This document shows positions 23,570 through 55,631 of a DNA stretch of 64,000 nucleotides, piece by piece. The stretch is from a virus, in IMG/VR virus record IMGVR_UViG_3300045988_161114, positions 120,640 through 184,639 of that record. The stretch is one strand, 5' to 3'. Numbering within the stretch: position 1 is the stretch's first letter; each line of letters begins with the position of its first letter. The translations under genes were made by a program, and so were the position numbers. The notes below the pieces were generated by a model that saw only the letters and a program-made list of their open reading frames with translations, was not told the origin of the DNA and searched no databases.

Positions 23570-24085
23570 ATGAAAGCACAAAAAATTCAATTAAGTGTGG
23601 GCATGAATAAATATATGCCTTTGGAAATTGTTACTCATACTGGGAACAAAGGTTTCATTGGATCTATTCTTTCAGATGGCCAAGTCGCTATGGCAATTGG
23701 CTTTGTTTATTCAAAAACTCATGGTAAGATGCCTGTAGCATGGAATATGTATGGTGAATCTACCGATCGTGTTTCAGCACTCGGCCTTGGCGATATTAAG
23801 CCAACTAAAGATCTCTGTATTAAAGAAATTATTACAAAGATTCCCAAAGAGCCAAAAGAAACTGACGTTTTCAAACAAGCATTTGGTGCAATTAGCAAAG
23901 CTAATGGTGCCGAATCTAAAGCTGAAAAAAATCATTCAATTGACACTTTGCCTCAAGAAATTCAGGCTCATTTGTCTGAATTATTTAGCAAATTAGGCGA
24001 TGGTGTTGAAGTTAAAGCGTACATGGTGGATTCAGAAGGTAATCTTGTTAGCCTTGATAAACCTGAAAACGAAACCGTACACTGA
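23570..24085 (+). CDS. Hypothetical protein
   Basis: 171 aa with an AGAAAGGG RBS. Confidence 0.7.
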   Translation: MKAQKIQLSVGMNKYMPLEIVTHTGNKGFIGSILSDGQVAMAIGFVYSKTHGKMPVAWNMYGESTDRVSALGLGDIKPTKDLCIKEIITKIPKEPKETDVFKQAFGAISKANGAESKAEKNHSIDTLPQEIQAHLSELFSKLGDGVEVKAYMVDSEGNLVSLDKPENETVH

Positions 24086-24176
24086 AACAGATCGTAAGTG
24101 AAAAAACAACAAAATGGACTAACGCCACATCGTTGGTACGATTAGCTTCCATTTGAGATTTCCGATAGATAGGTTT

Positions 24177-24218
24177 GTGCGTTTTCCTTAAAAACGTACA
24201 CCTCCATTTCTTTTTTTT
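24177..24218 (+). terminator. Hairpin + T-tract, sequence variant of the conserved element
   Basis: gtgcgtttt / aaaacgtac stem, then ...TTTCTTTTTTTTGAAAG. Confidence 0.45.
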
Positions 24219-24237
24219 GAAAGTTTATTTATTTAAA

Positions 24238-24579
24238 ATGACTCAAACTAAAAAGGCCAAAGCACACGTTCGACGTGCCTTTGACCACAAATCTAAATCT
24301 AAACCTAAATTTGATGGCATTAAAGTGCCGAAAGTTGGTGATGATTTGATTATTGACATCAAACCTGTTTTGGATCAATTTGGTCCGACTGGTGTATATG
24401 AAAAATGCACTGGTAAAGGCGTTGGTGATGAAATTCTGACACGTAAGATTGTTTCGGTTGTTCAAATCGGAACTAAGCGCTTCGCAGTACGCGATTTTGC
24501 GCGTGAATTCTGGGTTGTGTACCCTAAAGGTGGTGCATGGTACCCGGATAAAAACCAACGTGTTCATTACGAAAATTAA
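24238..24579 (+). CDS. Hypothetical basic protein
   Basis: ATG at 24238 (MTQTKKAKAHVRR...). The upstream part of the track ORF overlaps the hairpin. Confidence 0.65.
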   Translation: MTQTKKAKAHVRRAFDHKSKSKPKFDGIKVPKVGDDLIIDIKPVLDQFGPTGVYEKCTGKGVGDEILTRKIVSVVQIGTKRFAVRDFAREFWVVYPKGGAWYPDKNQRVHYEN

Positions 24580-24836
24580 TGCATTAAATTGCATAAATTG
24601 ACGTAAAAAGCAATCAAAATTTGTATGCATCTATTTATATCGGGTTTACATTCGGTATAAGTGGTGCATACAAAAACAAAACTTTGTAGAATATTGAAAT
24701 ATAAAGAAATATTCTTATGTAAAAGTTTATTAAGAAGTGTATGCAATTTAAATAGCTCAATAAGCATGTAGTCATGCATCGGGTATATCAAACGACTTTT
24801 TTAACTGGGCCAAAGCATATTTTGTGTACATTTCTT

Positions 24837-25340
24837 AATGAGCTTTTGCTCATTTATTGCCGTAAAGGTGATATTTATTAAGATCGTTTGGACGCGGGTT
24901 CGACTCCCGCCAACTCCACCAAAAGACATTTCAAAGATGTTGATACTCTGAAAAGAGTTAGCGATTCCATATAGCCTATTTTTAACCCTATTACATTATT
25001 GCGATTGAGTTAAAATGTCTTATGAGATGTCTTCTGATGGGGTTGTAATGGAATTCGACAGGCGGTGAATAGGGATATTGCTCGGCACGAGTTGCTTCGT
25101 AAAAGCAAAATTAAAATAAATGCAAACGATGATGTTTACATGGTACGCGCCGCTGCCTAATTTAGGTAGTTGAGCATAAATGTACAGGGTTTGGACAGTA
25201 CCTGGTAACAGAAACTGTCCGAGAATTCTAACACTGCGGCTAGTGCACAGTGAGTTTCGTAATCGTCTACGATTGGGTAGAGCTGGAATCGTAACCAGCA
25301 ATTATAAAAGAGTAAATATGTTTGGGCATACCTAGTAACC
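24837..25340 (+). ncRNA. ssrA: Circularly permuted (two-piece) tmRNA gene: acceptor piece, spacer, coding piece
   Basis: 24890-24921 is GGACGCGGGTTCGACTCCCGCCAACTCCACCA (T arm + 3' acceptor strand + CCA). 25039 onward is GGGGTTGTAATGGAATTCGACAGG (tmRNA 5' end). GGGGTTG/CAACTCC pair with a G3.U70 wobble. Tag ORF: GCA at 25122, ANDDVYMVRAAA, TAA at 25158-25160. The outer ends are approximate. Confidence 0.7.
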
Positions 25341-25439
25341 AACTAGTGAAATTTAAACAAGCATATATTTTGTGGAAATAACTTAACCATATATCGGTAT
25401 ATACCGACTTTTTGCATGAGTTTTAAATACCTTAAGAAT

Positions 25440-26195
25440 CGAATTTTGTGGTGACTACTTACAGAATTTAAGGTTTCAGGACATGTTTACTCCTTTATGA
25501 TTCAACCCCCCGCAGCTCTAAGGTGTTTCAACCTTAAATTGATGGTGCATACCATTGTCCTTTCTTGACAGCATAGCAATTTATATTAGTTGCTATTTGG
25601 CTCATCAGCAACGGAAAGACGGCCTGATGAAAACAAATTTATGTAGTACGTCTTACCTGTAGTATACCCTAAGACGTGCTATTAAATCAACTGTACTAGG
25701 CAAGCTAGGATGAGCTGAATGCAGTTGTAAAACCTTGGGTAGTCCTAGAAATCCAGCTATGGGTTGACCAAAAATAGCATTTATGGTAATAATGGGTCCG
25801 TCTCCTGCCCTGAGCCATACGACCAATGATATCATTAAGGCATTCGATATTATGTCGTTAAACTACTATACTTATTGCGTAGTAGAAAGAAATGCCTAGA
25901 TCGCTATAAAATGCGATCGAATCGTTAAACCTTGCCGAGGTACTATATCGGCCCTTCTAGGATGAAGAGCTACATCCTAGTATGTGTTCATTGATGTGAT
26001 AGGCCCTACCAACTTCGCCGACTCACTTATAGCTCAATCTCAGACTTGTCTGACTATTCCGTCTTTGGATTATGGACGGAAAGAGTGAGTTTACGACCGG
26101 CGATTCCGGAGTAATACCACTCTAATAATGATCCACTGAATAGCGTCGGCGCACTTTATGTGACGCCGGCGCATTCTTTATTTAATTAATTTATA
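25440..26195 (+). ncRNA. Candidate large ornate non-coding RNA #2 (family unknown)
   Basis: No credible ORF. At least 12 local helices, e.g. ttaaggtt/aaccttaa, tcatcag/ctgatga, acgtctta/taagacgt (extended by a plus-strand-only G.U pair), ctaggatg/catcctag, gatcgc/gcgatc, ttccgtc/gacggaa, actcact/agtgagt. Ends in a GC-rich hairpin followed by ATTCTTTATTT. Confidence 0.45.
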
Positions 26196-26247
26196 CAAGA
26201 TGCTATTTTATTGGTATTTTATATAAATTCTTTATTGAGGAATAATA

Positions 26248-26439
26248 ATGGTTGTATGTGTTTGTAATAATGTTAGCACCAACACGATCAATAAAGATTA
26301 TATTGATTTAAATAAAAGTGTTGATGATCTTATTATTGACACAGGTGCAACTATGTGTTGTGGAAAATGTGCTGATTATATTAATTGTATGTTTTCTGAA
26401 AAAGTTTTGTTAGTGCCATCTCTCCAACTGGACTCCTAA
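26248..26439 (+). CDS. BFD-like [2Fe-2S]-binding domain protein
   Basis: VCVCNNVS...MCCGKCADYI follows the C-x-C...C-x-x-C pattern and spacing of bacterioferritin-associated ferredoxin. Confidence 0.55.
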   Translation: MVVCVCNNVSTNTINKDYIDLNKSVDDLIIDTGATMCCGKCADYINCMFSEKVLLVPSLQLDS

Positions 26440-26534
26440 GGGTATGATGTTCTGCCCTCATATGGTATTATCATATGTTGCCTATTTTTAATAGGAAGAA
26501 CAAATTCTTTTTTAATCATTATGGAGGATTAAAG

Positions 26535-26951
26535 TTGAAGAAGAAAATACTTGCTATACTATTAGCACTACCATCTGTTAGTTTTGCCAAAGAAATTAAA
26601 TGTTTATCAGAAATGGCTTACTATGAGGCTCGCGGCGAAGGCACTCATGGTATAAAAGTTGTTACAGATGTAATGTTTAATAGAATGAAAAGCAATCAAT
26701 TCCCTGATGGAGTTTGTGCTAATTTTAGAAAAAGTGGTCAATATTCTACGGCTAAAATGGCCGGAGGAAGAAAAGACCAAGAGTTGTATAAAAAGGTTTC
26801 AGAACAAGTTGAATCTGAATATGCCAAATATCGTTTAGGTGATTGGCAAGACTCTACTAGTGGAAGTCTTTATTTTAATTCTAATGGATCACGTCCATCC
26901 AATAAAGTAAAATTTAAAGGGAAACGTGGAAGACATTTTCTTTATGGATAG
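26535..26951 (+). CDS. SleB-type cell-wall hydrolase (candidate endolysin) with signal peptide
   Basis: CLSEMAYYEARGEG..GIKVVTDVMFNRMKSNQFPDGVC is the Hydrolase_2/SleB signature. A likely TTG start at 26535 after a GGAGG RBS gives (M)KKKILAILLALPSVSFA. The track ORF starts at 26475. Confidence 0.7.
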   Translation: MKKKILAILLALPSVSFAKEIKCLSEMAYYEARGEGTHGIKVVTDVMFNRMKSNQFPDGVCANFRKSGQYSTAKMAGGRKDQELYKKVSEQVESEYAKYRLGDWQDSTSGSLYFNSNGSRPSNKVKFKGKRGRHFLYG

Positions 26952-26958
26952 TTTTAGT

Positions 26959-26993
26959 AGCCTAGCACTTATGTGTTAGGCTTTCTTGTTTTT
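26959..26993 (+). terminator. Rho-independent terminator
   Basis: agcctagcac / gtgttaggct stem (one G.T pair), then TTCTTGTTTTT. Confidence 0.65.
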
Positions 26994-27022
26994 ACAACAA
27001 TGTTCTCAGAAAGGACACAAAG

Positions 27023-30000
27023 ATGTACATTCGCTTAAAAGACATTCCAGTAATTGATGCTGATGCTACAGTTGCGGAGGTTTATGAAATTTATTCTAAA
27101 CAGTTGCCACAGGATCCAAGACTTAATTGGAAACTGTTGCAAGATCGTATTGCAATGGAAATTGTAAATGAGATTTCTGAACCGACTACAATTGAGATTC
27201 CTAAATCTTTTTATGATCTCAAATTGAATTGGCCTGAATTTTTGTTTGCAACCAAACATATTGACAGCAGTTCTGACATTGAATTGATGAGTCATCATGA
27301 ACTTATGTTTATGATGTTGTATGAACGCCTTGAATCTTTGTTCAAGTATGATCAACTCTTTACTGAATTGATTCGCAAAGACATCAATTATGTCAAGAAC
27401 CATGTATTGTATGTAACAAGTAATGCATACAATGCTGCTTTGAAAGAATCTTCTGAACTTGTTATTATTTCTCCTTATAATGAGTACAGTAAAGTTTTGA
27501 CATATTTGCATCAAGATAAAGTTATGGGCGACGCATTGCCCATGTTGTTTAATCCATCCGATCGTGCTATTAAGACTTCTGCATTATATTTTAATGTATT
27601 GCCCGGAAGTGAATCAATGCTTGCTGAATCTAATAAAATTATCATTTCTAAAAACGGTAAAGAGTTTCAGGCTCCTGGATTCCAAGTATTTAAAGATGAA
27701 AACGGTGGCTTTGTAGGTTATTCAAGTTTGTTCAAAGTTGGACAGTCTTTGCCTGCCCGTTTCAAGACTCATCTTAATGGTAATGCATTTGGTGTAAGCA
27801 ATCCTTCTAAGTTCATCTTTTTACAGGATGCAATTGAAAAGGATGGTGAATTAATCACTAAGGATAATACCTTAGTTGATGCAGTAATGGTTTATAACGA
27901 TATTGAATTGGAATCGTATCGTTTAGTAGGCGGCGAAATTGAAGTATCGCCTAAAGTAGGCAAAGAAATTGTGTTCACTCCTCGTCATATTGAAACTGAA
28001 TTTGATGAGATTGATGTAAAAGTTGGACAGACTATTTACAGCAAAGGTGGGTACATTAAAATTGGTTCACGTGGCGGTGAAGCAATTTATATCGAAATGG
28101 TAGACCATATTCAGGTTACTTCTATTGAAGAATCGGGATATAATGGGTCCGCCCGCATTGATTATATTGCCTACTATAAAGCTGGTAATGCCCGTATTAC
28201 AAGCCAAACTGGCTTGAAAGGTGTTACTAAAACTATGCGCAGTTGTGGCAAAATCAAGATTCATGAAGATGGCAAAGAAGATAAAATCATCGACGTGGAT
28301 ATTGTAGCTGGTATTAATAGCCTTAAAGGTAAAATGAATACTATTCGTCTTGCTCAAGCAGCTTTTGCATTTAAATATGGCTATTATACCAATGATAAAG
28401 ATTACCTCGACAGTCTTAATGAAGAGGAAATCAATGCCGCTGTTGCGTCATTGCCTACTGCAACTTATGAAAAACGTATTAAACGTGTTGATGGTTATGA
28501 TGATGAAATTATTGTAATTGAAAACGTTAAATACGGCCTGGTTCAGTATTCTTACACTGAATTGGGTAGCCATTTTGCTAAGATTAAGAATCAAGGCATG
28601 TCATTTAATTGTTTGAAATATATTTGTCAAACAACAGATTCATCTCTTGGACAATATATTTTAGATAATTGTATTGATAAATCTGATAAGCAAATTGTTG
28701 AAGAATTGGCAAAAATCTTGTCAGATGAAGGTCATGTATTTGAATACGCTGATAATTATCCGTCATATACATTGATTGAATTGAAGTCAATGTTTAATGA
28801 ACAGGACTTAATCTTGAGTCGTTCTGCTATTATTCCTACTAGCAGTAAATTGTTGGATCCTGAATTCAATAAAGGTTTCTATATCGACTTAAGTAAGGTT
28901 CGTTCTGGTACAAGTATTCGTGTACCATCTGCAGAGATTTTAAATAAATTCTGCGGTAAGCAAAATGATGGTCAATATGTATATCCAACTATGCTTATTG
29001 AATTGTCTAAAATCATTCGTGCAGCAATTGCTGGCCCTAGCCAGTATTTTACTATTGCGCCGCATCGTAATGAACGTAATCATAAGCGTCCTTCCGCATG
29101 GAATGGCTATTTGAATGCAATTAAATCAATGCTGTATCGTACTGAATTAGGTGGTCAAACTTATGTTAAATCACTTATTCAGCCAAGTCTCAAAGGTGTC
29201 AACCTTAAACAGGTTCATGATAAATATGTTCCTGAAGGCAAAGTCGTAATTCTTGATCGTAATATTCTTGAGAGTATTCGTGAGTATATTTATGGCAAGC
29301 CTAATAATAAGACAACTGAAGAGGCAATGCTTGACCAGTTCCGTCCATTAAATGCATTTACTTTGCGTAATCCGTTTTTATGGCGTTCACAGATGATTAT
29401 TTCCCAACTTTGGGGAATTGATGAATTCAATGATTATCTTCAGGAGAATTATGGAATGACTGTCAATGATTATCTGGATGTACAGGGAAATCTGCATTGC
29501 GCTTTGATTTCTACTGAAATTGTAAGACGTAGCCATAGCGACAATGATGGCGACTTATTGCAAATTAGTTCAATACCAGGAATTGAGCAACAAGAAATGA
29601 TGGCTCAATTCAAATTGGAATACTTTACTGAAGATCAAAAACAGTGGGATGAAGACTTCTTGTTGTCTGAGTATTCATCTATTGAAGATGTTGATTGGAG
29701 TAAAAAGTACGAATTGTATTATGTTCCAATTTATCCTAAGCATCCTGGTGATAATGCTTATATGGAATTTCTATGTTCATCAGCTATGGCTAAGAATGCA
29801 GTTGGTCCTGGTACAAATGATGCATGGGTATTTTACATGTTAGTTCAGCTGTATTATGGACTGGCGCGTGATAATGATCCTAAATCGTATGTACCTTGGG
29901 AACGTAAACGTAAAGTACAACTTCGTATTAAAGAAGAAGACTTGTTTACTTATGACCATATTTATACAATGGTTCTTGAAAATCGTGTAATTAATGCGAT

Positions 30001-30409
30001 TAAACATGTGTCAGGTGGAGCTAGCTCTCATGCTGTCTTCTACCTCAAAAACATGACAAAAGACGACAAGAGTGTTAAAAAGGTAATTAAAAGTATCGAG
30101 AATGACTTAGGTTATTCAAGAGAAGTTGCCGTTTCTATTTGTCGTATTGTAAATTGGGCAGTTAATACCAATGCACTTGAAATGTGTAATAAGTTTTTAC
30201 GCATGCACAATAAAGGTGCCCTAGTTGATCTAGGTGATGCGGATATTCAGATGTGGTTTAAACACATTGTTGATTATACGTTCTTTGGCAGTATGCTTGC
30301 ACCGATTTTTACCATTTATGGTCAAAGTCAAGGATTAATTCCTTTAGGCGAAAATGCAGAAAATAATGTGGCCGAAGTTATGGACACTTTTGACGCAATT
30401 GGTTTTTAA
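27023..30409 (+). CDS. Single-chain two-barrel RNA polymerase-like protein, paralogue 2
   Basis: 1128 aa. TSQTGLKGVTK...VDIVAGINSLKGKMNTIRLAQ resembles beta GRHGNKGVISK...VDIVLNPLGVPSRMNIGQ. About 440 aa later, LHCALISTEIVRRSHSDNDGDLLQI (DNDGD at nt 29540-29554) resembles the beta-prime NADFDGD loop. Confidence 0.75.
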   Translation: MYIRLKDIPVIDADATVAEVYEIYSKQLPQDPRLNWKLLQDRIAMEIVNEISEPTTIEIPKSFYDLKLNWPEFLFATKHIDSSSDIELMSHHELMFMMLYERLESLFKYDQLFTELIRKDINYVKNHVLYVTSNAYNAALKESSELVIISPYNEYSKVLTYLHQDKVMGDALPMLFNPSDRAIKTSALYFNVLPGSESMLAESNKIIISKNGKEFQAPGFQVFKDENGGFVGYSSLFKVGQSLPARFKTHLNGNAFGVSNPSKFIFLQDAIEKDGELITKDNTLVDAVMVYNDIELESYRLVGGEIEVSPKVGKEIVFTPRHIETEFDEIDVKVGQTIYSKGGYIKIGSRGGEAIYIEMVDHIQVTSIEESGYNGSARIDYIAYYKAGNARITSQTGLKGVTKTMRSCGKIKIHEDGKEDKIIDVDIVAGINSLKGKMNTIRLAQAAFAFKYGYYTNDKDYLDSLNEEEINAAVASLPTATYEKRIKRVDGYDDEIIVIENVKYGLVQYSYTELGSHFAKIKNQGMSFNCLKYICQTTDSSLGQYILDNCIDKSDKQIVEELAKILSDEGHVFEYADNYPSYTLIELKSMFNEQDLILSRSAIIPTSSKLLDPEFNKGFYIDLSKVRSGTSIRVPSAEILNKFCGKQNDGQYVYPTMLIELSKIIRAAIAGPSQYFTIAPHRNERNHKRPSAWNGYLNAIKSMLYRTELGGQTYVKSLIQPSLKGVNLKQVHDKYVPEGKVVILDRNILESIREYIYGKPNNKTTEEAMLDQFRPLNAFTLRNPFLWRSQMIISQLWGIDEFNDYLQENYGMTVNDYLDVQGNLHCALISTEIVRRSHSDNDGDLLQISSIPGIEQQEMMAQFKLEYFTEDQKQWDEDFLLSEYSSIEDVDWSKKYELYYVPIYPKHPGDNAYMEFLCSSAMAKNAVGPGTNDAWVFYMLVQLYYGLARDNDPKSYVPWERKRKVQLRIKEEDLFTYDHIYTMVLENRVINAIKHVSGGASSHAVFYLKNMTKDDKSVKKVIKSIENDLGYSREVAVSICRIVNWAVNTNALEMCNKFLRMHNKGALVDLGDADIQMWFKHIVDYTFFGSMLAPIFTIYGQSQGLIPLGENAENNVAEVMDTFDAIGF

Positions 30410-35938: not shown

Positions 35939-37414
35939 ATGAAAAAGACTTTTATTGCATTTGCTTTAGCCGCATTTATTACTCCTGCATTTGCTGTAAA
36001 TACTACTTATGGTAGTGATCAAAATGTAGACGGTAATTATAATGTAACTACTGGTCAGAAATTGATTGTTGCTGGTCAAGGCAATACAGTAACCGGAGTA
36101 GATATTATTACTGCCGGTGATTCTAATGTAGTATCCGGTATTCATAATATTGTTGATGGTAAAATCAATGTCGTATCTGGTCATAATGCTGCTGCAAAAG
36201 GCAACATGTCTGTAGCAATCGGTCAACGCGCTGAAGCTTACAATAGCATGGTTACTGCCGTAGGTTCTGACACTAAAGGTCTTGGTGAATCATCTGTAGC
36301 TCTTGGTAAGGGTGCTACAACTGGTGAAGAAGCTAAAGCTTCTACTGCAGTAGGTCCACATGCTACTGCTATGTCTCCTTCTGCATTTGCTGGTGCTTTA
36401 CATGCTTATGCTGGTGGTGCACAATCTGTAGCATTGGGTCAAAGCAGCCAATCTATGGGTGAAAAATCTACTGCCATTGGTTCTGGTGCACAAGCTTTGG
36501 AACGCTTCTCTACTGCTGTAGGTGGCAATGCTGTTGCTACCAATCAACATGATGTCGCTTTGGGTTTCGGTTCCAAAACAACTGGTGCTGTTGGCACTGC
36601 TACATCAGAAATTAATGGTGTTAAATATGGCACTTATGCCGGTCATCGCCCTACAAGCGAATTAAGTGTTGGTAGTGAAGGCTGGGAACGCAATGTAACC
36701 AATGTTGCAGCCGGTCGTATTACTAAAACCTCTACCGATGCCGTTAATGGCAGTCAGCTTTTCGCCGTTGCTAATCAAGTTGGTGAAAATACCAAAGGTG
36801 TTGAAGCCAATAAGAAAGCAATTGCCGAATTGGGTGATGTTGTAGCTATTAATGCCGGCAATATTGAAGCCAATACTCAACAAATCACTACTTTGAACCA
36901 TACTGTTCAACAGCAAAACACTTGGAACGAAGCTCAAGATGGTCAAATCAATGAGCTGCATGGCAATGTTGGTGTCAATTCTGAACGTCTGGATAATCTG
37001 ACTGCTCTGGTTAAAGGTATGGGTGCTAACGAAGCAATCCTGCGTAAAGAAATGCACGATCTTCGCCGTGAATCTCGTGCCGGCATTGCTGGTGCTAATG
37101 CTATTGCTGGCATTCCGCAACCACACGCTCCTGGACAAACTGCATTTGGCGTTGGTGCTGGTTATTTCAAACACGAAGGTGCAGTAGCTTTGGGCGTTTC
37201 CCACATTTCCAACTCTGGTAAGTGGGTCACCAAGGCTGGTGTCAATTTTGACACCCGTAAAAATGTTGGTGCGACAATTGGTTTGAGTTATGTATTGGGA
37301 GGCGTTCCTGTTGTAGCTCCTGCTCCTGTTGTAATTCATAAAACTGAAGTTGTTGAAAAAGTAATCGTACGTGAAGTAGCGCCGGTTCCTGCACAAGTAA
37401 AAGTGCGTCAATAA
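35939..37414 (+). CDS. Trimeric autotransporter adhesin (YadA family)
   Basis: Signal peptide MKKTFIAFALAAFITPAFA. Repetitive head/stalk (GxNxxAxG repeats). Neck NVAAGRITKTSTDAVNGSQLFA. Coiled-coil stalk. C-terminal anchor AGIAGANAIAGIPQP...GVGAGYF..GAVALGVS. Confidence 0.8.
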   Translation: MKKTFIAFALAAFITPAFAVNTTYGSDQNVDGNYNVTTGQKLIVAGQGNTVTGVDIITAGDSNVVSGIHNIVDGKINVVSGHNAAAKGNMSVAIGQRAEAYNSMVTAVGSDTKGLGESSVALGKGATTGEEAKASTAVGPHATAMSPSAFAGALHAYAGGAQSVALGQSSQSMGEKSTAIGSGAQALERFSTAVGGNAVATNQHDVALGFGSKTTGAVGTATSEINGVKYGTYAGHRPTSELSVGSEGWERNVTNVAAGRITKTSTDAVNGSQLFAVANQVGENTKGVEANKKAIAELGDVVAINAGNIEANTQQITTLNHTVQQQNTWNEAQDGQINELHGNVGVNSERLDNLTALVKGMGANEAILRKEMHDLRRESRAGIAGANAIAGIPQPHAPGQTAFGVGAGYFKHEGAVALGVSHISNSGKWVTKAGVNFDTRKNVGATIGLSYVLGGVPVVAPAPVVIHKTEVVEKVIVREVAPVPAQVKVRQ

Positions 37415-46040: not shown

Positions 46041-46883
46041 ATGATTAAGATAAATTCTTTTAATACTGCAATTACAGAATTTCCTAATGGTGAACGTGGA
46101 TACGAATTCACTGTAAGTGATGTAAAGCATGTTCGCCTATTTTTTAAATATGAAGACGATAAAGATATTTTTTCTTTAATTTGTGCTGCTGAGACTATTT
46201 ATCGTTGGAATAAACAGGCTAAAATTGAATTAATTATGCCATATATTCCATACTCACGTATGGATCGTGTTAAAAAATCATTTTCTGCTTTTACATTAAA
46301 ATCTTTTGCTAATGTAGTAAATAGCATTGTTAAACCTCAATATATAAAATGTTTAGATGCACATTCTGATGTATCTTTAGCTTTGTTTGATTGTTATGTA
46401 TATAATTATAAACCTCAAATTAAATTTATTAATGAAAAATATGGTAAAGATACTACACTGATTGTATATCCTGATAGTAACGCAGCTAAGAAATATAAAG
46501 AATATCTTTCGAAATTTAAATCTATTTCACTACTGAAAGATCGTGATTTTGAAAGTGGTCAAATTGCAGCATCTGTTATTGCTGATTCAGCTGATTTGGT
46601 AAAAGTTGATACAACCAAATTTAAGAATGTTGTTATCGTTGATGACTTATGTTCTAAAGGCGGAACCTTTTTAAGAGCTGCAGAAAATATTCGTAAGCTT
46701 TTAAAATCAGAAGATATAAATATTGATTTGGTTGTAGCACATTGTGAATACAATATTTTTAATGGACAACTTCTTTCTGAAGGAAGTCCATTTAATGGTA
46801 AGGTTTATACAAGCAATAGTATTCTTAATGATGATTGTAAAGAACCTCGCATTGTTATTCACGAAGATTTTAGACTTATTTAA
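46041..46883 (+). CDS. Ribose-phosphate pyrophosphokinase-like enzyme (Prs or Adps-type)
   Basis: IMPYIPYSRMDR (Prs PY..Y.RQDR motif) and VVIVDDLCSKGGTF (PRPP-binding loop). At 280 aa it is shorter than typical Prs. Confidence 0.75.
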   Translation: MIKINSFNTAITEFPNGERGYEFTVSDVKHVRLFFKYEDDKDIFSLICAAETIYRWNKQAKIELIMPYIPYSRMDRVKKSFSAFTLKSFANVVNSIVKPQYIKCLDAHSDVSLALFDCYVYNYKPQIKFINEKYGKDTTLIVYPDSNAAKKYKEYLSKFKSISLLKDRDFESGQIAASVIADSADLVKVDTTKFKNVVIVDDLCSKGGTFLRAAENIRKLLKSEDINIDLVVAHCEYNIFNGQLLSEGSPFNGKVYTSNSILNDDCKEPRIVIHEDFRLI

Positions 46884-46894: not shown

Positions 46895-49360
46895 ATGGAA
46901 TCTCTTATTCCTTCTCTTATTTGTGATTTTTATAAAACATCACATCATAATCAATACCCGAAAGATACAGAGTTTCTGTATTCTACATTAGTGCCGCGCA
47001 GTAATAAATACCTCCCTACAGTTGATCGTGTTGTATCTGTAAATATTACTGGCTTTCTTAAAAAGTATTTTGTTGATTATTTCAATAAATTCTTTTTTGA
47101 GCGTCCAGAAGAAGAAGTAGTACAAGAGTATTGTGAATTTATTAAACGTACTCTTAGGATAAATGATAATGGTAAACATATTCGTAAATTGCATAAATTG
47201 GCTTATTTGCCAATTCGTGTAAAAGCTATTCCTGAGGGTCGTTCTGTTCCTATTGGTGTTCCTAATTTAACTATCGAGAATACCCATAAAGAATTTGCAT
47301 GGTTAACAAATTATCTTGAAACTCTTTTGTCTTGCTCTTTGTGGAGTCCAATTACATCTGCTTCTATTGCACGTCAATACCGAATTATTGGCGAAAAATA
47401 TGCAGCTAAGACATGTGACAATAATGGGCATGTATCATTTCAGTTCCATGACTTTTCTATGCGTGGTATGAGCTCTTTGGAAAGTGCACAAATTTCTGGT
47501 CTTGGACATCTTATTTATTTTGATGGTACAGATAATATTCCAGCTATTACATATACTGATAAATATTATTCTGGTAAAACTGCTAAAGATTGGAATCCAA
47601 CTTCAATACCAGCATGTTATGACAGTGAAACGGAAGTATTGACAGACACTGGATGGAAAAAGTTTCAAAATTTGCAAGAAACTGATAAGGTAGCGCAATA
47701 TCATAAAAGTGGCGAAATTGATTTTGTTAAACCGACCGAATATTATAATATTCCATATAAAGGAAAGATGATTAAATATGGATGGAATTCGGATTTAAAT
47801 TATATCGATATTTTTGTTACACCTAACCATAAAATGGTTAAGAAAAATAAAGAGGGAATTATAGAGCTATTTGAAGCTTCAAAAAATATGTATTCTGTTG
47901 AGGGTTCTAAAGCTATAATAAGTGGAACAAAAATAAAAGGAGATATAACATCCTTATCTCCGCTTGATAAATTTTTAATTGCATTTCAAGCTGATGGATC
48001 ATTCTTTAACAAAAAAGAATATGAAAGTCAATATACCGGAGGAAGATCTGGAACATTTCCTGTTAGATTTACCCTTAAAAAGATTAGAAAGATAGAAAGA
48101 CTTACTAATATATTAAATGATTTGGGATGGGCATTTAATAAAAGTTTTTCAAAGTCTAGAAAAGGTTATGTTTATTTTTATATTAAAGTTCCTTTTTTAA
48201 TAAAGCATAAAATATCTAAATATTTTAAAGATTGGGTAAATTTAAGTGAAATTACAAGTTCTTGGGGATGTGATTTTATAAATGAACTGCAATATTGGGA
48301 TGGTAAAGCTACTGGCAAAGATGGCATAGGTTATTTTACAATTGTAGAAGAAAATGCAGATTTTGTTCAAGCTATTTCACATATATCAGGTTTAAAATCT
48401 AAAATTACTAAAGATAATCCAGATAAAATTAGAGGCAATAGAAAAATAGGATATGATTCTAATATAATTTTTAGAACTGATATTGGAGGGAAAGGAATTA
48501 CTTTTGAAGAAATTGACTATGACGGAACTGTTCATTGTGTATCTGTACCAACAAAAATTCTTGTAGTAAGAAGAAACAAAGCTGTAGCAATATGTGGAAA
48601 TACTGAACACTCTGTAATGTGTGCTAATATTGCTAAACAGCAAGCTGAAGGAAAAGGCCGTGATGAAACTGAAACCTATCGGAAACTGATTACTGAAACA
48701 TATCCATCAGGATATGTTTCTATTGTTTCAGATACTTATGACTTTTGGCATAATGTTAGTGTTGTAATTCCTTCTCTTAAAGATGAAATCATGGCTCGTG
48801 ATGGACGTGTAGTTATTCGTCCTGATAGTGGCAATCCTGTCGAGATTATTTGTGGAACTGTTAAATCTGATGGTGTTACTCCTGAAGAAAAAGGCCTTAT
48901 TGAGGTACTTTGGGAGACGTTTGGAGGCACTGTAAACGAGAAAGGATACAAAATCCTTGATCCGCATATTGGTGCAATCTATGGCGATTCTATCACTCTT
49001 GAACGTGCTGAATTGATTCTTGCCGGATTGGAAGCAAAAGGTTTTGCGTCTTCAAATATTGTTTTTGGAATAGGATCATTTTCGTATGCCGGACCGACAC
49101 GTGATTCACTCGGATTTGCTGTTAAAGCTACTTCTGTAACACAAAGTGGTATCGAATATCCGATTCAAAAGGATCCTAAAACTGATCCAAGTAAGAAATC
49201 CTTCTGTGGTCGTATCAAAATTGTAAACGATAAGTGCATCGACAATATGTCTTCTATTGGGGACTATAGTGATGATGAATTAGAAGTCGTATTTGAAAAT
49301 GGAATTGTATCTCATGTAGATATTGGCACTATTCGTAAACGTGCTTTATCTGAAATTTAA
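46895..49360 (+). CDS. Nicotinamide phosphoribosyltransferase-like enzyme (NAMPT/NadV or Namat-type), intein-interrupted
   Basis: NAMPT-like exteins (...FHDFSMRGMSS...GTDNIPA | TEHSVM...SDTYDFW...IRPDSG...GIGSF...). Residues 241-569 are an intein. Confidence 0.85.
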   Translation: MESLIPSLICDFYKTSHHNQYPKDTEFLYSTLVPRSNKYLPTVDRVVSVNITGFLKKYFVDYFNKFFFERPEEEVVQEYCEFIKRTLRINDNGKHIRKLHKLAYLPIRVKAIPEGRSVPIGVPNLTIENTHKEFAWLTNYLETLLSCSLWSPITSASIARQYRIIGEKYAAKTCDNNGHVSFQFHDFSMRGMSSLESAQISGLGHLIYFDGTDNIPAITYTDKYYSGKTAKDWNPTSIPACYDSETEVLTDTGWKKFQNLQETDKVAQYHKSGEIDFVKPTEYYNIPYKGKMIKYGWNSDLNYIDIFVTPNHKMVKKNKEGIIELFEASKNMYSVEGSKAIISGTKIKGDITSLSPLDKFLIAFQADGSFFNKKEYESQYTGGRSGTFPVRFTLKKIRKIERLTNILNDLGWAFNKSFSKSRKGYVYFYIKVPFLIKHKISKYFKDWVNLSEITSSWGCDFINELQYWDGKATGKDGIGYFTIVEENADFVQAISHISGLKSKITKDNPDKIRGNRKIGYDSNIIFRTDIGGKGITFEEIDYDGTVHCVSVPTKILVVRRNKAVAICGNTEHSVMCANIAKQQAEGKGRDETETYRKLITETYPSGYVSIVSDTYDFWHNVSVVIPSLKDEIMARDGRVVIRPDSGNPVEIICGTVKSDGVTPEEKGLIEVLWETFGGTVNEKGYKILDPHIGAIYGDSITLERAELILAGLEAKGFASSNIVFGIGSFSYAGPTRDSLGFAVKATSVTQSGIEYPIQKDPKTDPSKKSFCGRIKIVNDKCIDNMSSIGDYSDDELEVVFENGIVSHVDIGTIRKRALSEI
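47615..48601 (+). mobile_element. Intein with LAGLIDADG homing-endonuclease domain (329 aa)
   Basis: Starts CYDSETEVLTDTG (Cys codon 47615-47617). Ends AICGN followed by +1 Thr (Asn codon 48599-48601). Internal LIAFQADGSF and FINELQYWDGKA resemble the two LAGLIDADG motifs. Inserted in the conserved ..PA|(S/T)EHS.. active-site segment. Confidence 0.8.
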
Positions 49361-50491: not shown

Positions 50492-51193
50492 ATGAAATAT
50501 GTTAAGACCTACAATAGAAATTTAGCTGGCCGTGATTTCGTTGTTGGCGATATTCATGGCTGTTATGATCAATTGATGAATCTCTTAAAAGAGATAAAAT
50601 TTAATTTTGCAAAAGACAGAATGTTTGCTGTTGGAGACCTTGTTGACAGAGGCCCAAAGTCAAAAGAGGTTTTAGATTTACTTTATGAACCCTGGTTTCA
50701 TTCTGTTATTGGTAATCATGATTATAGATTTATCTGTTATTGTGATGCTGTATCTGAAGATTACAAAAAGGCAATAGTAGACTTTGAAGACTATTTAGCC
50801 AGCGATGGTTCTTTTATTAAAAATTTAAAAGAATCTGAAATAATGAAGTATTATAAATTAATAGATAATCTTCCTAGTGTAATAGAAATAGAAACACTAG
50901 ACAAGAAATTTGGTATTGTTCACGCAGAATCATTAAAAGATTGGGATATGTTCAAAATAGGTATTAATAGCAATCACTCTATTAGAACTAATTCAATGTG
51001 GACAAGAAAAAGATTTTATAAAAAAGATAAATCCATTATTAATGGTATAGACTATGTAATAGTAGGACATACTGTTGTTGATGAACCTATTCAATTAGGT
51101 AATACAATATATATTGATACAGGTTATGTATTCGGGGATAATAGAAAACTTACCTGTATATGTTTAAATTATATGGAAATGTATTCTGTTTAA
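50492..51193 (+). CDS. Ser/Thr protein phosphatase-family metallophosphatase (lambda PP / PrpA-like)
   Basis: GDIHGCYDQL, GDLVDRGP and GNHD motifs. Confidence 0.85.
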   Translation: MKYVKTYNRNLAGRDFVVGDIHGCYDQLMNLLKEIKFNFAKDRMFAVGDLVDRGPKSKEVLDLLYEPWFHSVIGNHDYRFICYCDAVSEDYKKAIVDFEDYLASDGSFIKNLKESEIMKYYKLIDNLPSVIEIETLDKKFGIVHAESLKDWDMFKIGINSNHSIRTNSMWTRKRFYKKDKSIINGIDYVIVGHTVVDEPIQLGNTIYIDTGYVFGDNRKLTCICLNYMEMYSV

Positions 51194-51202
51194 GGAGTTA
51201 TT

Positions 51203-52315
51203 ATGGAATTGATTAAGTTTATTCAAAAATATGGCGAAGATAAACTCCATGAATTAGGAGTGCATTTTTATAAATATGGAGATTTGACTGTATATCAATA
51301 CAGTCAAATTGAAAGTTTTCCATTTAAAAGAAATCCAGTTGTTATAGAATCTCGTGGTGTTATCTTAGATAATAATTTAAAAGTTATTGCAAGGCCATTT
51401 GACAGATTCTTTAATTATAATGAAGATGATGTATGTCCAGATATAAACTGGTCTGAATGCCATATTTATGAAAAGGTTGATGGAAGTCTTATTAAGGTTT
51501 TTCATTATAATGGTAATTGGCATGCTGGAACAAAAAAGACTGCATATGGCAATACGGATGTAAATGGTTTTGATGTAATGTTTAAAGACCTTGTTTATAA
51601 GGGCTTTAATGTTCAAACTCAAGAAGAATTTAATTCTATATTTGAAGGATTTGAGGGATTAACTTTAATATTTGAACTTACATCTCGTGAGAATAAAGTA
51701 GTAACATCGTATCCTAGTACACAAATGTGGTTATTGGCAATTCGTGATAATGATACCGGCATGTATATTGATAAAGATGAAATAGTTCTAAATCTTAAGA
51801 ATAGTGGAAGATTGAATAAATATTCAATTAGACTTCCTAAGAAATTTACATTCAATAGCTATTCTGCTTGTGCTAAGGCTGCAGATGAACTTCCAGATCT
51901 AAATGAGGGATACGTTGTTTACAATACAGATGGTGCCCCTATTTTAAAAATTAAGAGTCCTGCATATGTTGCAGCTCATCAGTTACGCGGTAATGGTTTA
52001 AGTGGTAATAAAGCACTTGAACTTGTTATTAATTTTGAAGAATCTGAATATTTATCTTTGTTTCCTGAAGATAAGGAAATTCTTGATAAGTATATTGATG
52101 CAAGAAATGAATTATTTGATTCATTGGATTTTATTTGGGAGAAGTATAAAACTGCTCCTACTATAAAAGATTTTGCATTAACAATAGGTAATTATTCTGA
52201 GTCTGCTATCCTGATTAAGAAATATAAGGATAGAGATAAAACATTTTTAGAGATATTCAATGATTTTCTATTTTCTCGTAGAAAAAATTTTATATCTAAA
52301 TTTTTAAGCAATTAA
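51203..52315 (+). CDS. RNA ligase (Rnl1-like covalent nucleotidyltransferase)
   Basis: Motif I YEKVDGSLI, motif III LIFELTS, motif IV NEGYVVY, motif V ILKIKSP. Confidence 0.8.
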   Translation: MELIKFIQKYGEDKLHELGVHFYKYGDLTVYQYSQIESFPFKRNPVVIESRGVILDNNLKVIARPFDRFFNYNEDDVCPDINWSECHIYEKVDGSLIKVFHYNGNWHAGTKKTAYGNTDVNGFDVMFKDLVYKGFNVQTQEEFNSIFEGFEGLTLIFELTSRENKVVTSYPSTQMWLLAIRDNDTGMYIDKDEIVLNLKNSGRLNKYSIRLPKKFTFNSYSACAKAADELPDLNEGYVVYNTDGAPILKIKSPAYVAAHQLRGNGLSGNKALELVINFEESEYLSLFPEDKEILDKYIDARNELFDSLDFIWEKYKTAPTIKDFALTIGNYSESAILIKKYKDRDKTFLEIFNDFLFSRRKNFISKFLSN

Positions 52316-52327
52316 AAGGAAATTAAA

Positions 52328-53443
52328 ATGGGCGGCAAGTTATCTTCTCGTAGAATGGTAAATGAATATAGCTTTCTTTGCAATGCTATTCTTTCTGCTA
52401 TTAACATCAAGAATATTTATATCCCTCGGCACATTGAAAATAAATCCTCTTTTGGGGATATTGATGTTTACATCAAAGATGGTGATATTAAATTTGAAGA
52501 GGTAGCAGAACTTCTTCGCAAATCAAAATCATTTAATGTCAAAGATGTATTTGTCGGAACCAATCAGGTAGTTATTCATTCTGAAGAATTTAATATTGAC
52601 GTTCAGGTTGATATTAACTTTATAAATAATTGGAGCTTTAGACATTGGCATGATTTTGGAACAATGTCTGCTCTAATAGGACAAATTATTCCTTATGAAA
52701 TGAAGTTTGCAAGTAATGGATTATTCCTTCGTAAAACTGAAAATATGATTGAATATCCTATTAAACTTGATTTTGAAGAAGCTTTGTCATTCTTAGGTTT
52801 TAACGAAGTAAAATTTAGAAACGGATTTAAAACAGAAGAGGCACTTTTTGATTGGCTTGTTACATCTAAGTATTTTAATAAAGCTGATTTACTTATTAAT
52901 CCGCACAATTCTGGTAAACGTAAACGTGACGAAAATCGTGGCATTGATAAAATAGTTGAGCAAATGCTTAACTGTAAAAATAAAGGCAGATTCGATTTGA
53001 ATCGTTTAGAGCCATATAAACGTATGGCTTATAATATGTTTAAATCGGTCCAAAGATGGGAATATGAAATTAAGCGCATTAAAAAATGGTGCAAAATTTT
53101 ATATGTACCTCCATTTAAAATTGAAGAATTAGCTTCAAAGAATACTTTATTACTTAATGCTTCTAAGATTGATAATAAAAAGTTTTCTGATCTGATTGTT
53201 CGACATGCTTATAGTGATCCTGATACTAAGGCTATTGATGCCTCAATTAAGATTGTTAAAAAGCAGGTAAATCCTGCTCTTGTAAAAGAGTATTCAGATT
53301 TATACAGCGGTAGAGAACTGCTTATTAAATTGTCTTACCTTATTTTAAGAAGTAAAGGCATTAAAGAGGCTAAGAATTATATTCCGTCTCGTGTTTTGCG
53401 CGATGTTTTGAAATTGGAAAAGGAATTAAATGGGAACAAGTAA
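52328..53443 (+). CDS. Putative nucleotidyltransferase-fold protein
   Basis: SSFGDIDVYI and later FNIDVQVDI fit the G(S)...DxD...D pattern of Pol-beta-type NTases. Sits between the RNA ligase and Pnkp genes. The product call is weak. Confidence 0.6.
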   Translation: MGGKLSSRRMVNEYSFLCNAILSAINIKNIYIPRHIENKSSFGDIDVYIKDGDIKFEEVAELLRKSKSFNVKDVFVGTNQVVIHSEEFNIDVQVDINFINNWSFRHWHDFGTMSALIGQIIPYEMKFASNGLFLRKTENMIEYPIKLDFEEALSFLGFNEVKFRNGFKTEEALFDWLVTSKYFNKADLLINPHNSGKRKRDENRGIDKIVEQMLNCKNKGRFDLNRLEPYKRMAYNMFKSVQRWEYEIKRIKKWCKILYVPPFKIEELASKNTLLLNASKIDNKKFSDLIVRHAYSDPDTKAIDASIKIVKKQVNPALVKEYSDLYSGRELLIKLSYLILRSKGIKEAKNYIPSRVLRDVLKLEKELNGNK

Positions 53444-54326
53444 ACTTAAAGTATATTTGACTGTTGGTATTTCTGCTTCTGGTAAAACTTCATGGGCAAA
53501 GACCAATCCTATTCCTAATGCTGTTTATATCACTAGGGATGATATTAGATTCAATCTTATTAAGCCCGGGCAAACCTGGGCTGATTATAAGTTCAATAAA
53601 GAAAATGAACAGATTGTTTCTAATATTCAAAGATCAATTGCTGATCAAGCAGTAAAAGATAAAAAGAATATTGTTATTGTAGATACTAATCTTTCTTTTC
53701 ATGTTAGACAATATTGGAAAGATTTTTCCAAAAAAGTCGGTTACGGTTTTGAAATTATTGATTTTGAATGCTCTTTTGAAGAAGCAGTTAAACGTGATAA
53801 TCTCAGAGCAAATGGTGTTGGTCAATCAGTTATCAGAAAGCAATACAAGAATTATTTAGAATATTCTGGATTTAAATTTTATATTCCAGATGAAGCTAAG
53901 CCAGATTGCATTGTTGTCGATATTGATGGGACTGTTGCTCAAATGCATAATCGTTCTGCATTTGAATGGGATAAAGTAGGTAATGATAAGCCTCGTCAAT
54001 TTGTAATCGATCTTATTCTTGCATATGCAGAAAAGCATAAATGCAGAGTTGTATTTTTATCTGGGCGTGATTCTATTTGTCGTGATGCTACTATTGATTG
54101 GATTAAGAAGAACGTTTCAAAAACTATTGATTTTGAATTGTATATGAGAAAATCAAAAGATAATCGCAAAGATTATTTTGTTAAAAAAGATTTATTTTTT
54201 GACTATGTTGAACCATCATATAATGTTAAGGCAGTTTTTGATGATCGCCCTCAGGTAGTTAGATTATGGCATGATCTTAAAATAGAGAATGTCATTTGTG
54301 TTGGTGAGCCATTTATTGAATTTTAA
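53430..54326 (+). CDS. Polynucleotide kinase / 3'-phosphatase (T4 Pnkp-like)
   Basis: N-terminal P-loop GISASGKTSWA. C-terminal HAD phosphatase motif IVVDIDGTVA and FDDRPQVV. Confidence 0.8.
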   Translation: MGTSKLKVYLTVGISASGKTSWAKTNPIPNAVYITRDDIRFNLIKPGQTWADYKFNKENEQIVSNIQRSIADQAVKDKKNIVIVDTNLSFHVRQYWKDFSKKVGYGFEIIDFECSFEEAVKRDNLRANGVGQSVIRKQYKNYLEYSGFKFYIPDEAKPDCIVVDIDGTVAQMHNRSAFEWDKVGNDKPRQFVIDLILAYAEKHKCRVVFLSGRDSICRDATIDWIKKNVSKTIDFELYMRKSKDNRKDYFVKKDLFFDYVEPSYNVKAVFDDRPQVVRLWHDLKIENVICVGEPFIEF

Positions 54327-54337
54327 AGGAATTTATT

Positions 54338-54922
54338 ATGGGTAAAATTTTTACTATTTTTAAAACTATTTTTAGCTCTATCTTTAAAAAGCCCTTTATG
54401 ACAAATCCTGATTTGGCTAAAGCCGAAATTGAAAAACAGATCGAAAAAGGTCGTCAATATCTTCAAAGTCTTTATATCGAATCAGCAAAAACCGATAAAA
54501 ATATTCTTAAATACAAAGAAGCTGTTGCAACTGAAGAGCGTAAATTGAAAGACGCAGAAATTATTGCTGCAGCTGACGATTCTAATGAAGAAAAGATCAT
54601 TAACGCTTTTAATATTAAAAAGTGTTTAGATAATTCAAAAGCTATGCATAAGAATTATGAATCATTTAAGAATCAAATTACTAAACGTATTTCAGAAGTA
54701 ACAATTAAGATTTCATCTCTTGAATTGCAAAAGTCTCAAATTGTAACATCTATGTCGGCAAACAATTTTAATTTGTCTAAATTTAATATGGATAAATTTA
54801 TTGAAGAACTTGATTCCAATACCGAGGGTATTGCAAAATTCCAGAAAGAAACTGGAATTAATGATAGTCAATTCGAGCATGAATATCAAGAATATAAGAA
54901 ATCTTTTAAAAAAGAATCTTAA
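54338..54922 (+). CDS. Coiled-coil protein, possibly PspA/IM30-like
   Basis: MGKIFTIFKTIFSSIF... amphipathic N-terminus followed by a long coiled coil, similar in layout to PspA (MGIFSRF...). Confidence 0.5.
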   Translation: MGKIFTIFKTIFSSIFKKPFMTNPDLAKAEIEKQIEKGRQYLQSLYIESAKTDKNILKYKEAVATEERKLKDAEIIAAADDSNEEKIINAFNIKKCLDNSKAMHKNYESFKNQITKRISEVTIKISSLELQKSQIVTSMSANNFNLSKFNMDKFIEELDSNTEGIAKFQKETGINDSQFEHEYQEYKKSFKKES

Positions 54923-54936
54923 TGTATCATTGGTAA

Positions 54937-54969
54937 AGCCATCCTGTTAATCAGGGTGGCTATTTTATT
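54937..54969 (+). terminator. Rho-independent terminator
   Basis: agccatcctg / cagggtggct stem, then ATTTTATT. Confidence 0.65.
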
Positions 54970-54981
54970 AAAGGGAATGAA

Positions 54982-55590
54982 ATGGATATTGTTGTATATC
55001 AGGAAGACAATGGTAATGTCTCTATACTTGAAAGAGAGAATAGATGGAATTCTTTTAGGAAGTATATAAAAGGAAAATTTCCTCATAATTTATATATATT
55101 TCTATCTGCTTTTATTTTTATTTATTCTTTTTCCTTTGTAGAACCTGTATGGCCTGTTGTTTTTTTATTTTTATTTGGTTTTATATATTTCATTATTGTT
55201 GAGATATTTGGAATTAGAAGATTTATTATTTCTGATAAACCTGAATATATGTCAATATCGCATTCTGATATTATATTATCTTATGGTGAAGTATATCCAA
55301 ACTTAAAATGCTTTATTATTATAAAAGATAAATGTAATATATTGGTTTTTACTTCTGCTTTTGATATAGAAAAAGGATTATATATTTCTGATAAGACTCA
55401 ATCATTTGATGACGGAATAAGTAAAAATTTATACACTACAGAATATTTTGGCGATACATTTGTAAATGATGTTAAGTCGATTATTGGGAATATAAAAAAT
55501 AATAATGATTTTTTCGAATATGGAAAAATAAAAAATTATTATTTGGAAGATTTTATATACATATATAATAAGTATGTAAAAAATATATAA
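54982..55590 (+). CDS. Membrane protein
   Basis: 202 aa with two TM helices. Confidence 0.6.
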   Translation: MDIVVYQEDNGNVSILERENRWNSFRKYIKGKFPHNLYIFLSAFIFIYSFSFVEPVWPVVFLFLFGFIYFIIVEIFGIRRFIISDKPEYMSISHSDIILSYGEVYPNLKCFIIIKDKCNILVFTSAFDIEKGLYISDKTQSFDDGISKNLYTTEYFGDTFVNDVKSIIGNIKNNNDFFEYGKIKNYYLEDFIYIYNKYVKNI

Positions 55591-55631
55591 TATGTAGGGC
55601 GTTATTGCCCTACTATAATAAAAAGGTTAAT

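Follow-up and report, generated by a model that had tools for sequence, protein, structure and literature searches.

A circularly permuted tmRNA gene in a structured non-coding island of an uncultivated phage

Does an uncultivated phage carry an intact gene for a transfer-messenger RNA (tmRNA) in which the 3' half is encoded ahead of the 5' half, and what would such a gene do during infection? The question is raised by a 64-kb window (the whole stretch of DNA analysed here, positions 120,640 to 184,639 of IMG/VR record IMGVR_UViG_3300045988_161114) from a phage genome of ~180 kb. All coordinates below count along this window. A sequence-only reading of 24837-25340 had proposed a phage-borne, circularly permuted ssrA gene with its own tag. 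Both detectors used here, eight contigs, covariation and the conservation of the surrounding island agree with that proposal. The locus is a real, intact, circularly permuted gene for tmRNA, the ribosome-rescue RNA, and it sits in a 1.67-kb (1668-nt) non-coding island. Judged from its sequence, it is highly likely to be a functional phage-encoded ssrA that yields a two-piece tmRNA.

Structure of the permuted gene

ARAGORN places a permuted tmRNA with the tag ANDDVYMVRAAA at 24829-25251, and covariance models succeed on both pieces. The Rfam 15 model tmRNA_permuted (RF04321; curated threshold 47 bits) scores 115.8 bits (E = 6.8e-22), with model positions 1-213 fully covered. The alpha_tmRNA model (RF01849; threshold 50 bits) is also covered in full, at 104.8 bits (E = 1.5e-27), and is the match retained in Rfam clan competition among the clade-specific tmRNA models. 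In both Rfam alignments the 117-nt spacer between the pieces stands out as a long insert against the consensus. A permissive Rfam search (up to E = 10) returned no further families in 24000-27000.

The permuted form is the sole tmRNA form called by ARAGORN and Rfam. ARAGORN finds no standard-order tmRNA anywhere in the 64-kb window, which bears out the earlier statement that a normal gene order is not available, and within the island no T arm or CCA lies 3' of the tag, as a one-piece tmRNA (RF00023) would have. The outcomes that the sequence-only reading had named as fatal to itself did not occur: the models fit, there is no standard-order gene and the 3' fragment does not stand alone.

On the + strand, the acceptor (3') segment with its CCA comes first (24858-24921) and the coding (5') segment follows from 25039. 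The core of the acceptor piece, delimited by ARAGORN, the Rfam alignment and covariation, contains the covariation-supported 5' strands of P2 (24858-24862, 24873-24875 and 24883-24890), the T arm (24894-24910) with T loop TTCGACT, the acceptor 3' strand (24911-24917), the discriminator A (24918) and the encoded CCA (24919-24921). The stretch from the T arm through the CCA falls within GGACGCGGGTTCGACTCCCGCCAACTCCACCA (24890-24921). The 5' part of the coding piece (25039-25121, +; ARAGORN, Rfam and covariation) begins with the acceptor 5' strand GGGGTTG (25039-25045). It continues with a D-loop analogue, the 3' strands of P2 (25059-25066, 25074-25076 and 25083-25087) and a PK1-like pseudoknot (~25087-25108, read by eye from the sequence), and has the resume context ATAAAT at its 3' end. 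GGGGTTG pairs with CAACTCC in a 7-bp acceptor stem between the two pieces, which includes G3.U70 (25041 with 24915). All tRNA-like elements are present: acceptor stem, T arm, CCA and three P2 helices. One variant (L003) retains the PK1 pairing through a wobble pair.

The tag frame called by ARAGORN (25122-25160, +) runs from the resume codon GCA (25122-25124) to the stop codon TAA (25158-25160), and its 12 codons encode (A)NDDVYMVRAAA, with the C-terminus RAAA. Relatives have the tags ANDNVYMVRAAA or ANDNVYMVCAAA; the differences comprise two synonymous changes (GAT/GAC and CGC/CGT) and two amino-acid changes, and none of the eight lineage variants has a frameshift or early stop in the frame. 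Every position that the sequence-only reading had given for these parts (24890-24921, 25039, the 117-nt gap, GCA at 25122, TAA at 25158-25160 and G3.U70) was confirmed in the sequence. Its overall span, 24837-25340, is close to the structured core, and its end at 25340 matches the end of a 17-bp helix (25317-25335) beyond the tag.

Covariation, candidate processing elements and gene extent

Eight contigs of one near-identical lineage carry the permuted gene at the same position. Three are IMG/VR viral contigs (18, 141 and 182 kb) and five are metagenome contigs (up to 184 kb) recovered by scanning metagenomes for a sequence pattern. Between the window and the relatives L001 and L002, the flanking genes share 76-81% of their third codon positions, whereas identity to the same relatives is 92-94% in the acceptor piece, 90% in the spacer, 93-94% in the 5' part of the coding piece plus tag, and 96% in the post-tag region (25161-25412), the island's most conserved stretch. 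The non-coding island is conserved above the flanking third codon positions. Among the lineage sequences, acceptor pair 5:68 is U-A in some and C-G in others, and all changes in P2 preserve pairs.

A deeper alignment comprised 12 distinct permuted tmRNAs sharing the tRNA-domain pattern, with the spacer interior replaced by GAAA. Compensatory changes occur in 31 of the 45 predicted pairs. Paired cells amount to 94.6%, compared to 75.3% in shuffles and 40-50% in slid-partner controls, and none of 500 shuffles reached the observed value on any measure. In P2 helices 1-3, 14 of 16 pairs show compensatory changes. Acceptor pair 5:68 covaries as U-A, C-G and G-C, and 6:67 as U-A, C-G and A-U. The G.U pair G3.U70 is invariant across the alignment, G3 itself being fixed by the search pattern.

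The 117-nt intervening sequence (24922-25038, +), which the two-piece model removes, is closed by an 11-bp stem (24923-24933 with 25023-25033). The sequence-only reading had noticed that AGACAT and ATGTCT at the spacer ends can pair; this pairing belongs to a covariation-supported stem (helix 6), which uses the second ATGTCT copy (25027-32). Compensatory changes occur in 15 of the 16 pairs of helix 6 across the 12 sequences, and the stem is kept in every relative despite wholly different sequence. Inside the spacer, the minimum free energy (MFE) fold has a hairpin, ACTCT-GAAA-AGAGT. The 5-nt leader CTGAT (+) directly precedes G1, and the spacer stem places it, together with the CCA, beside the acceptor stem. 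As modelled, the precursor would have the shape of a pre-tRNA with paired leader and trailer. The spacer of another metagenomic permuted tmRNA (L025) contains a perfect T-arm-like hairpin, GCTGG-TTCGATT-CCAGC, found with one mismatch in L013; a tRNA-like processing signal may thus be built into some phage spacers.

Upstream of the acceptor piece, 24719-24746 pairs with 24822-24849 in a leader helix of ~27 bp (+). The fold of 24700-24860 has z = -4.81, and the helix is kept in all eight lineage sequences, with one compensatory change (G-C to A-U) and six one-sided changes that preserve pairing. Several of its pairs are G.U, which speaks for + strand RNA, and transcription would accordingly begin upstream of 24719. 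Its 3' arm overlaps and competes with a small hairpin (24836-24853) that the alpha_tmRNA model puts at the 5' end of the acceptor piece. The leader helix is a candidate RNase III-type double-strand processing stem. Farther upstream, the 10-bp perfect inverted repeat listed by the sequence-only reading is present, TTTGTATGCA at 24620-24629 and TGCATACAAA at 24665-24674 (+), 40 nt past the stop of the upstream gene. It is invariant in the four sequences of alignment A1 and is not followed by a T-run.

Beyond the tag, the consensus fold of eight sequences has a structured domain (25162-25335, +; MFE z = -3.49). Its 17-bp closing helix (25162-25178 with 25317-25335) encloses an AACAGAA pseudoknot (25185-25220) and three further hairpins. 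The AACAGAA pseudoknot motif is common to other permuted tmRNAs, and in those retrieved here a U-run right after it ends the RNA. The window's gene has no U-run right after the pseudoknot; its first terminator-like hairpin is TCGGT-ATAT-ACCGA (25394-25407), followed by CTTTTT (to 25413). This hairpin is invariant in relatives and lies at the end of the coding piece's 3' tail (25336-25413, +), whose sequence is unique within the window. Since the leader helix, the post-tag helix and the 3' tail all extend past the detector calls, the gene is larger than either call, spanning roughly 24719-25413. The motif ATTTTGTG-N3-A-N3-CTTA occurs in three copies (24819-24837, 25367-25385 and 25443-25461), all on the + strand and only inside the island; the pattern was derived from these same three copies, so its statistic is circular and we draw no conclusion from it.

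Proposed function, origin and relation to known two-piece tmRNAs

The best-supported reading of the locus is a working ribosome-rescue RNA that would depend on the host's RNase P, alanyl-tRNA synthetase (AlaRS) and SmpB. Permuted precursors are processed by tRNA-processing enzymes (PMC11915505). In the mechanism we propose, a single + strand precursor would start upstream of 24719 and either end at 25394-25413 or read through to 26143-26172. Host RNase P would cleave 5' of G25039, the spacer hairpin would be excised and the 3' end would be trimmed to the encoded CCA, while double-strand cleavage, probably within the 27-bp leader helix, would define where the acceptor piece begins. Pairing in P2 and the acceptor stem would keep the two pieces joined. 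Host AlaRS would charge the RNA and host SmpB would deliver it to stalled ribosomes, where translation would resume at GCA and append (A)NDDVYMVRAAA. The likely benefit would be that ribosomes are kept free while messages are cut during infection, which fits the neighbouring genes for two RNA ligases, a polynucleotide kinase, a Ro60-like protein, tRNAs and NAD salvage. Ribosome rescue during infection, which the sequence-only reading had raised, is plausible.

Several points weigh against this reading. Processing, charging and tagging are all predicted, and compatibility with host SmpB and AlaRS is assumed. A rough tblastn with an approximate E. coli SmpB query did not find smpB in the 64-kb window of the ~180-kb genome, and a scan did not find a sigma-70 promoter upstream on the + strand. 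The invariant columns of the T arm and G1-G4 are partly imposed by the search pattern; the covariation of P2 and the spacer stem is not. Within the lineage, evidence from the tag is thin, with four substitutions in 39 nt, two of them synonymous. The tag also ends in AAA, the usual endings being LAA or VAA. Going by work on E. coli, this ending could weaken recognition by ClpX, and the phage tag may be a weaker protease signal. With these points included, we regard the phage tmRNA gene as probably functional.

The first alternative is a decoy or inhibitor, an RNA that would sequester the host's SmpB or AlaRS or prevent trans-translation in the host. There is a precedent in mycobacteriophage DS6A, whose element consists of a tRNA-like domain only, with no tag frame (PMC4131195); inhibition of tmRNA is reported for a similar molecule (PMC11915505, PMC4131195). 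Like the DS6A element, the window's gene is a tmRNA derivative carried by a phage and could compete for SmpB, and both the atypical AAA ending and the failure of the rough tblastn to find smpB in the window would suit a decoy. Unlike the DS6A element, it has a complete mRNA-like domain: PK1 and the resume context are present, the 12-codon frame is open and retains its stop in all eight variants, and the post-tag domain is 96% identical. A decoy would need none of these parts, and we consider this explanation improbable.

The gene could instead be a passenger with little or no function, captured recently from a cell or a phage along with flanking non-coding DNA. What invites this idea is its distribution. 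The 1128-aa protein encoded just downstream of the island (27023-30409) has distant relatives, 45-47% identical in three metagenomic groups and 28% identical in the Acinetobacter jumbo phage vB_AbaM_ME3. Within 8 kb of these distant homologues, ARAGORN and Rfam find no tmRNA. The relatives with 45-47% protein identity retain the local gene order (a homologue of the upstream 113-aa protein, a BFD-like gene, a cell-wall hydrolase and the large protein), and in one of them (L012) the flanking genes lie 290 nt apart, compared to 1668 nt in the window. Because such relatives keep the flanking genes without a tmRNA at this site, the island is a lineage-specific gain. G+C content is 0.37 here compared to 0.29-0.35 in several neighbouring 2-kb windows. 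Against an idle passenger, however, every part of the island is more conserved than flanking third codon positions, the substitutions preserve pairing, and no donor above ~60% identity was found, cellular or phage. Outside the lineage, the permuted tmRNA of Acinetobacter phage BUCT628 comes closest in sequence (60%), and megablast of 20 kb finds no close relatives among GenBank phages. A scan of 185,579 species-representative genomes with the tRNA-domain pattern gave no match with a 100-130-nt spacer and 21 cellular genes with a 15-45-nt spacer, all at most 58% identical; the scan covered these two spacer ranges. On this evidence we give the passenger explanation little credence.

It is very unlikely that the window is cellular DNA, from a chromosome or an island, and the gene a host's own permuted ssrA. 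Capsid and terminase genes are missing from the 64-kb window, and most of its open reading frames (ORFs) have no known family. On the other hand, three IMG/VR viral and five metagenome contigs, given as 140-185 kb, are collinear with the window, it has T4-type RNA-repair genes and a homologue in ME3, and no contig among the species-representative genomes matches a pattern, with a 100-130-nt spacer, that the gene satisfies. We accept the DNA as phage, with the reservation that capsid and terminase genes are not inside the window. An integration-site remnant (attP), in which only the 3' end of a host ssrA persists as a recombinase target, carries next to no weight: many islands and prophages do integrate into ssrA (PMC11915505), and blastn of the locus against GenBank phages matches only ~40 nt of the T arm and acceptor end, but those matches lie in complete permuted tmRNA genes rather than att fragments, and the 5' half, P2, pseudoknot and tag frame are all present here, permuted and covarying, which refutes a remnant as the sole explanation.

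The favoured reading, a phage-encoded two-piece tmRNA, places the gene among known relatives. Catalogues of phage tmRNAs go back to at least 2014 (PMC4131195), 79 have been reported (PMC11915505), and 53 of 133 unique phage tmRNA structures are two-piece (PMC9004378). Of the known occurrences, the sequence-only reading listed the cellular lineages alone and omitted the phage two-piece tmRNAs, which were already documented (PMC9004378, PMC11915505). Two-piece tmRNAs of phages being already published, the window's gene is a further example, set in an unusually elaborate non-coding RNA island. With it, a large uncultivated lineage joins the phages that encode a ribosome-rescue RNA of their own.

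Permuted ssrA of bacteria is known from Caulobacter and other Alphaproteobacteria, a betaproteobacterial group and a cyanobacterial group (RF04321, RF01849, RF01850, RF01851). The window's gene shares with it the gene order, the two-piece tRNA-like domain, the P2 pairing, a pseudoknot before the tag, an AN(D)-type tag and the AACAGAA pseudoknot after the tag. Unlike the bacterial genes, it has an extra 5' leader and extra 3' domains, and its spacer measures 117 nt, compared to 20-45 nt in the 21 cellular genes and ~24-36 nt in Rfam consensus sequences. In most phage-type permuted genes encountered in the analysis the spacer is 74-126 nt, and a long structured spacer could be a phage-specific style of permuted ssrA.

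Among phages, the OM43 phage Melnitz has an alpha-type two-piece tmRNA unlike its host's, with a glutamine riboswitch in the gene's 3' domain (PMC9004378). As in Melnitz, Pelagibacter phage Mosig and pelagimyophages (PMC9004378), the permuted ssrA of the window belongs to a large lytic-type phage; sequence similarity to these genes is undetectable past the T arm. Like Melnitz, it has an extra structured 3' domain, here of no known family. Complete permuted tmRNA genes without RNA annotation also lie in the GenBank records of Xanthomonas phages Rb1 (PQ569993) and JGB6 (OQ436456), Alcaligenes phage vB_Af_QDWS595 (NC_070849) and Acinetobacter phage BUCT628 (MZ593728), L047-L050 in our set. Their tags are, in that order, ANDDNFRPALRLAA, VTANDSYFEVALAA, ANDNVYAAAA and ANDNVFGAKTLAA. 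These four share the tRNA-domain pattern and spacer-end pairing with the window's gene, at ~54-60% identity over the tRNA domain and tag. The tags of QDWS595 and BUCT628 are similar to the window's, and that of QDWS595 also ends in AAA. Their spacers are 26-107 nt, compared to 117 nt here, and most of the four genes adjoin tRNA genes, whereas the window's island has none. For annotation, the locus is a clean example of an RNA gene missed by gene callers, the same type being unannotated in at least four GenBank phage records.

The sequence-only reading had taken the permuted form as a hint at host lineage, which does not hold up. The chromosomal tmRNA of Acinetobacter and Xanthomonas has the standard one-piece form. 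Cultured phages of both genera carry permuted genes, and the tmRNA of Melnitz differs in type from its host's (PMC9004378). The permuted form cannot assign a host because it is common in phages, including those of Acinetobacter, Xanthomonas and Alcaligenes.

Nor does the gene fit any of the three cellular clades cleanly. Its T loop, TTCGACT, is canonical, unlike the alpha consensus, and the Rfam 'alpha' label rests mainly on the tag region and pseudoknot. Those of the 21 cellular genes that were run through ARAGORN and Rfam belong to Alcaligenaceae or are extra Stenotrophomonas copies with unusual tags. The Alcaligenaceae genes sharing the tRNA-domain pattern score 155-166 bits on the beta model. 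Permuted tmRNAs of Stenotrophomonas and related genomes (L029, L030, L034, L036 and L040) have unusual tags such as ANNDDYHQVLKAA and ANESVYDQPQERELLVA. Stenotrophomonas is a genus expected to have a standard tmRNA, and the permuted copies are probably carried by prophages or islands.

The downstream RNA and the surrounding genes

Directly 3' of the tmRNA lies an ORF-free folded region of about 790 nt (25414-26183, +), with no ORF of note. It is 87-93% identical to relatives, compared to 76-81% at third codon positions. The + strand folds at -235 kcal/mol (z = -9.06) and the - strand at -213 kcal/mol (z = -2.39), the latter only marginally better than shuffled sequence, and 25414-26183 is the most strongly folded stretch examined. 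Compensatory changes occur in many of its local hairpins; in a variable hairpin at 26083-26122 the sequence is swapped in relatives with pairing kept. Two consensus folds disagree on long-range pairs, so only the local hairpins are trustworthy. A GC-rich terminator-like hairpin (26143-26172, +) followed by a T-run ends the region.

The region has no Rfam match up to E = 10, which includes the glutamine riboswitch of Melnitz, and relaxed ARAGORN finds no tRNA in it. An RNase P-like reading of GGAAAGACGG was dropped, as no model matched. By nhmmer and exact-word scans the region occurs only in the same phage lineage, and in distant relatives it is absent together with the tmRNA. In one variant (L021) a tRNA-like element replaces part of it.

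This RNA is the most novel thing at the locus. We put forward, tentatively and as a possibility that we rate below even, that a lineage-specific RNA island of 1.67 kb exists of which only the tmRNA is recognisable, the coding piece being fused to or co-transcribed with an undescribed multi-hairpin RNA of ~790 nt. The coding piece has a free 3' end, which allows such additions, as with the Melnitz riboswitch. If so, large structured phage RNAs would gain a new class, or two-piece tmRNAs a new kind of 3' domain with a regulatory or scaffold role. The adjacent structured RNA, which is unclassified, and the long spacer are the parts of the locus most worth following up.

The G+C content of the window varies between ~0.26 and 0.42, and nearly all genes are on the + strand. 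A literature search for the contig accessions found nothing. The genes that can be recognised are phage-type and encode a DNA-repair exonuclease, NAMPT with an inserted element, PRPP synthase, thymidylate synthase, two RNA ligases, a polynucleotide kinase, a phosphatase, a Ro60-like RNA-binding protein and an AAA ATPase; the RNA ligases, polynucleotide kinase, NAMPT, Ro-like protein and exonuclease have PHROG matches. The 1128-aa protein next to the island has no Pfam family and contains SDNDGD. Its close homologues (94-96%) are on three IMG/VR viral contigs, and its sole cultured homologue is that of ME3 (28% identity). The matching region of ME3 (L005, 7881-12616) spans several coding sequences, one of them annotated as an endonuclease, and has a group I intron within it (Rfam, 51 bits). 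The only pointers to a host, weak ones, are that ME3 and BUCT628 both infect Acinetobacter. In a stretch of locally higher G+C, a YadA-like trimeric autotransporter adhesin gene (35939-37414) encodes head, stalk and membrane anchor domains. Distant relatives (L008) have a similar gene, and the protein has broad proteobacterial matches when compared with phages and plasmids; two other large window proteins have no phage match.

An RNA-repair cluster (50492-56597) comprises a NinI-like phosphatase, a T4 Rnl1-like RNA ligase, a polynucleotide kinase and an Rnl2-like RNA ligase. Near it are the NAD-salvage genes for PRPP synthase (46041-46883) and NAMPT (46895-49360). The RNA-repair and NAD-salvage genes suggest a shared purpose, translation running despite RNA damage during infection, and the company of the tmRNA, with RNA ligases, polynucleotide kinase, Ro60-like protein and tRNAs, suggests a possible strategy in which translation would be kept running during RNA cutting. 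NAMPT has an insertion of ~330 aa (residues ~240-570), a putative intein given its matches to parts of the ribonucleotide reductase, PhoH and ThyX PHROG families; an ORF with an intein splicing domain lies at 137-1525 on the - strand.

A group I intron (58814-59052; Rfam, 83.6 bits) lies between an ORF (58122-58763) and the gene for the Ro60-like (vWA) RNA-binding protein (59179-60756). After the latter gene, 60991-63128 contains tRNA-Pro, tRNA-Arg and several tRNA-like elements with 31-63-nt insertions, located at 61227-61348 and 62339-62462 by Rfam and at ~61077-61217 by intron-allowing ARAGORN. These elements may be YrlA-like Y RNAs that partner the Ro protein.

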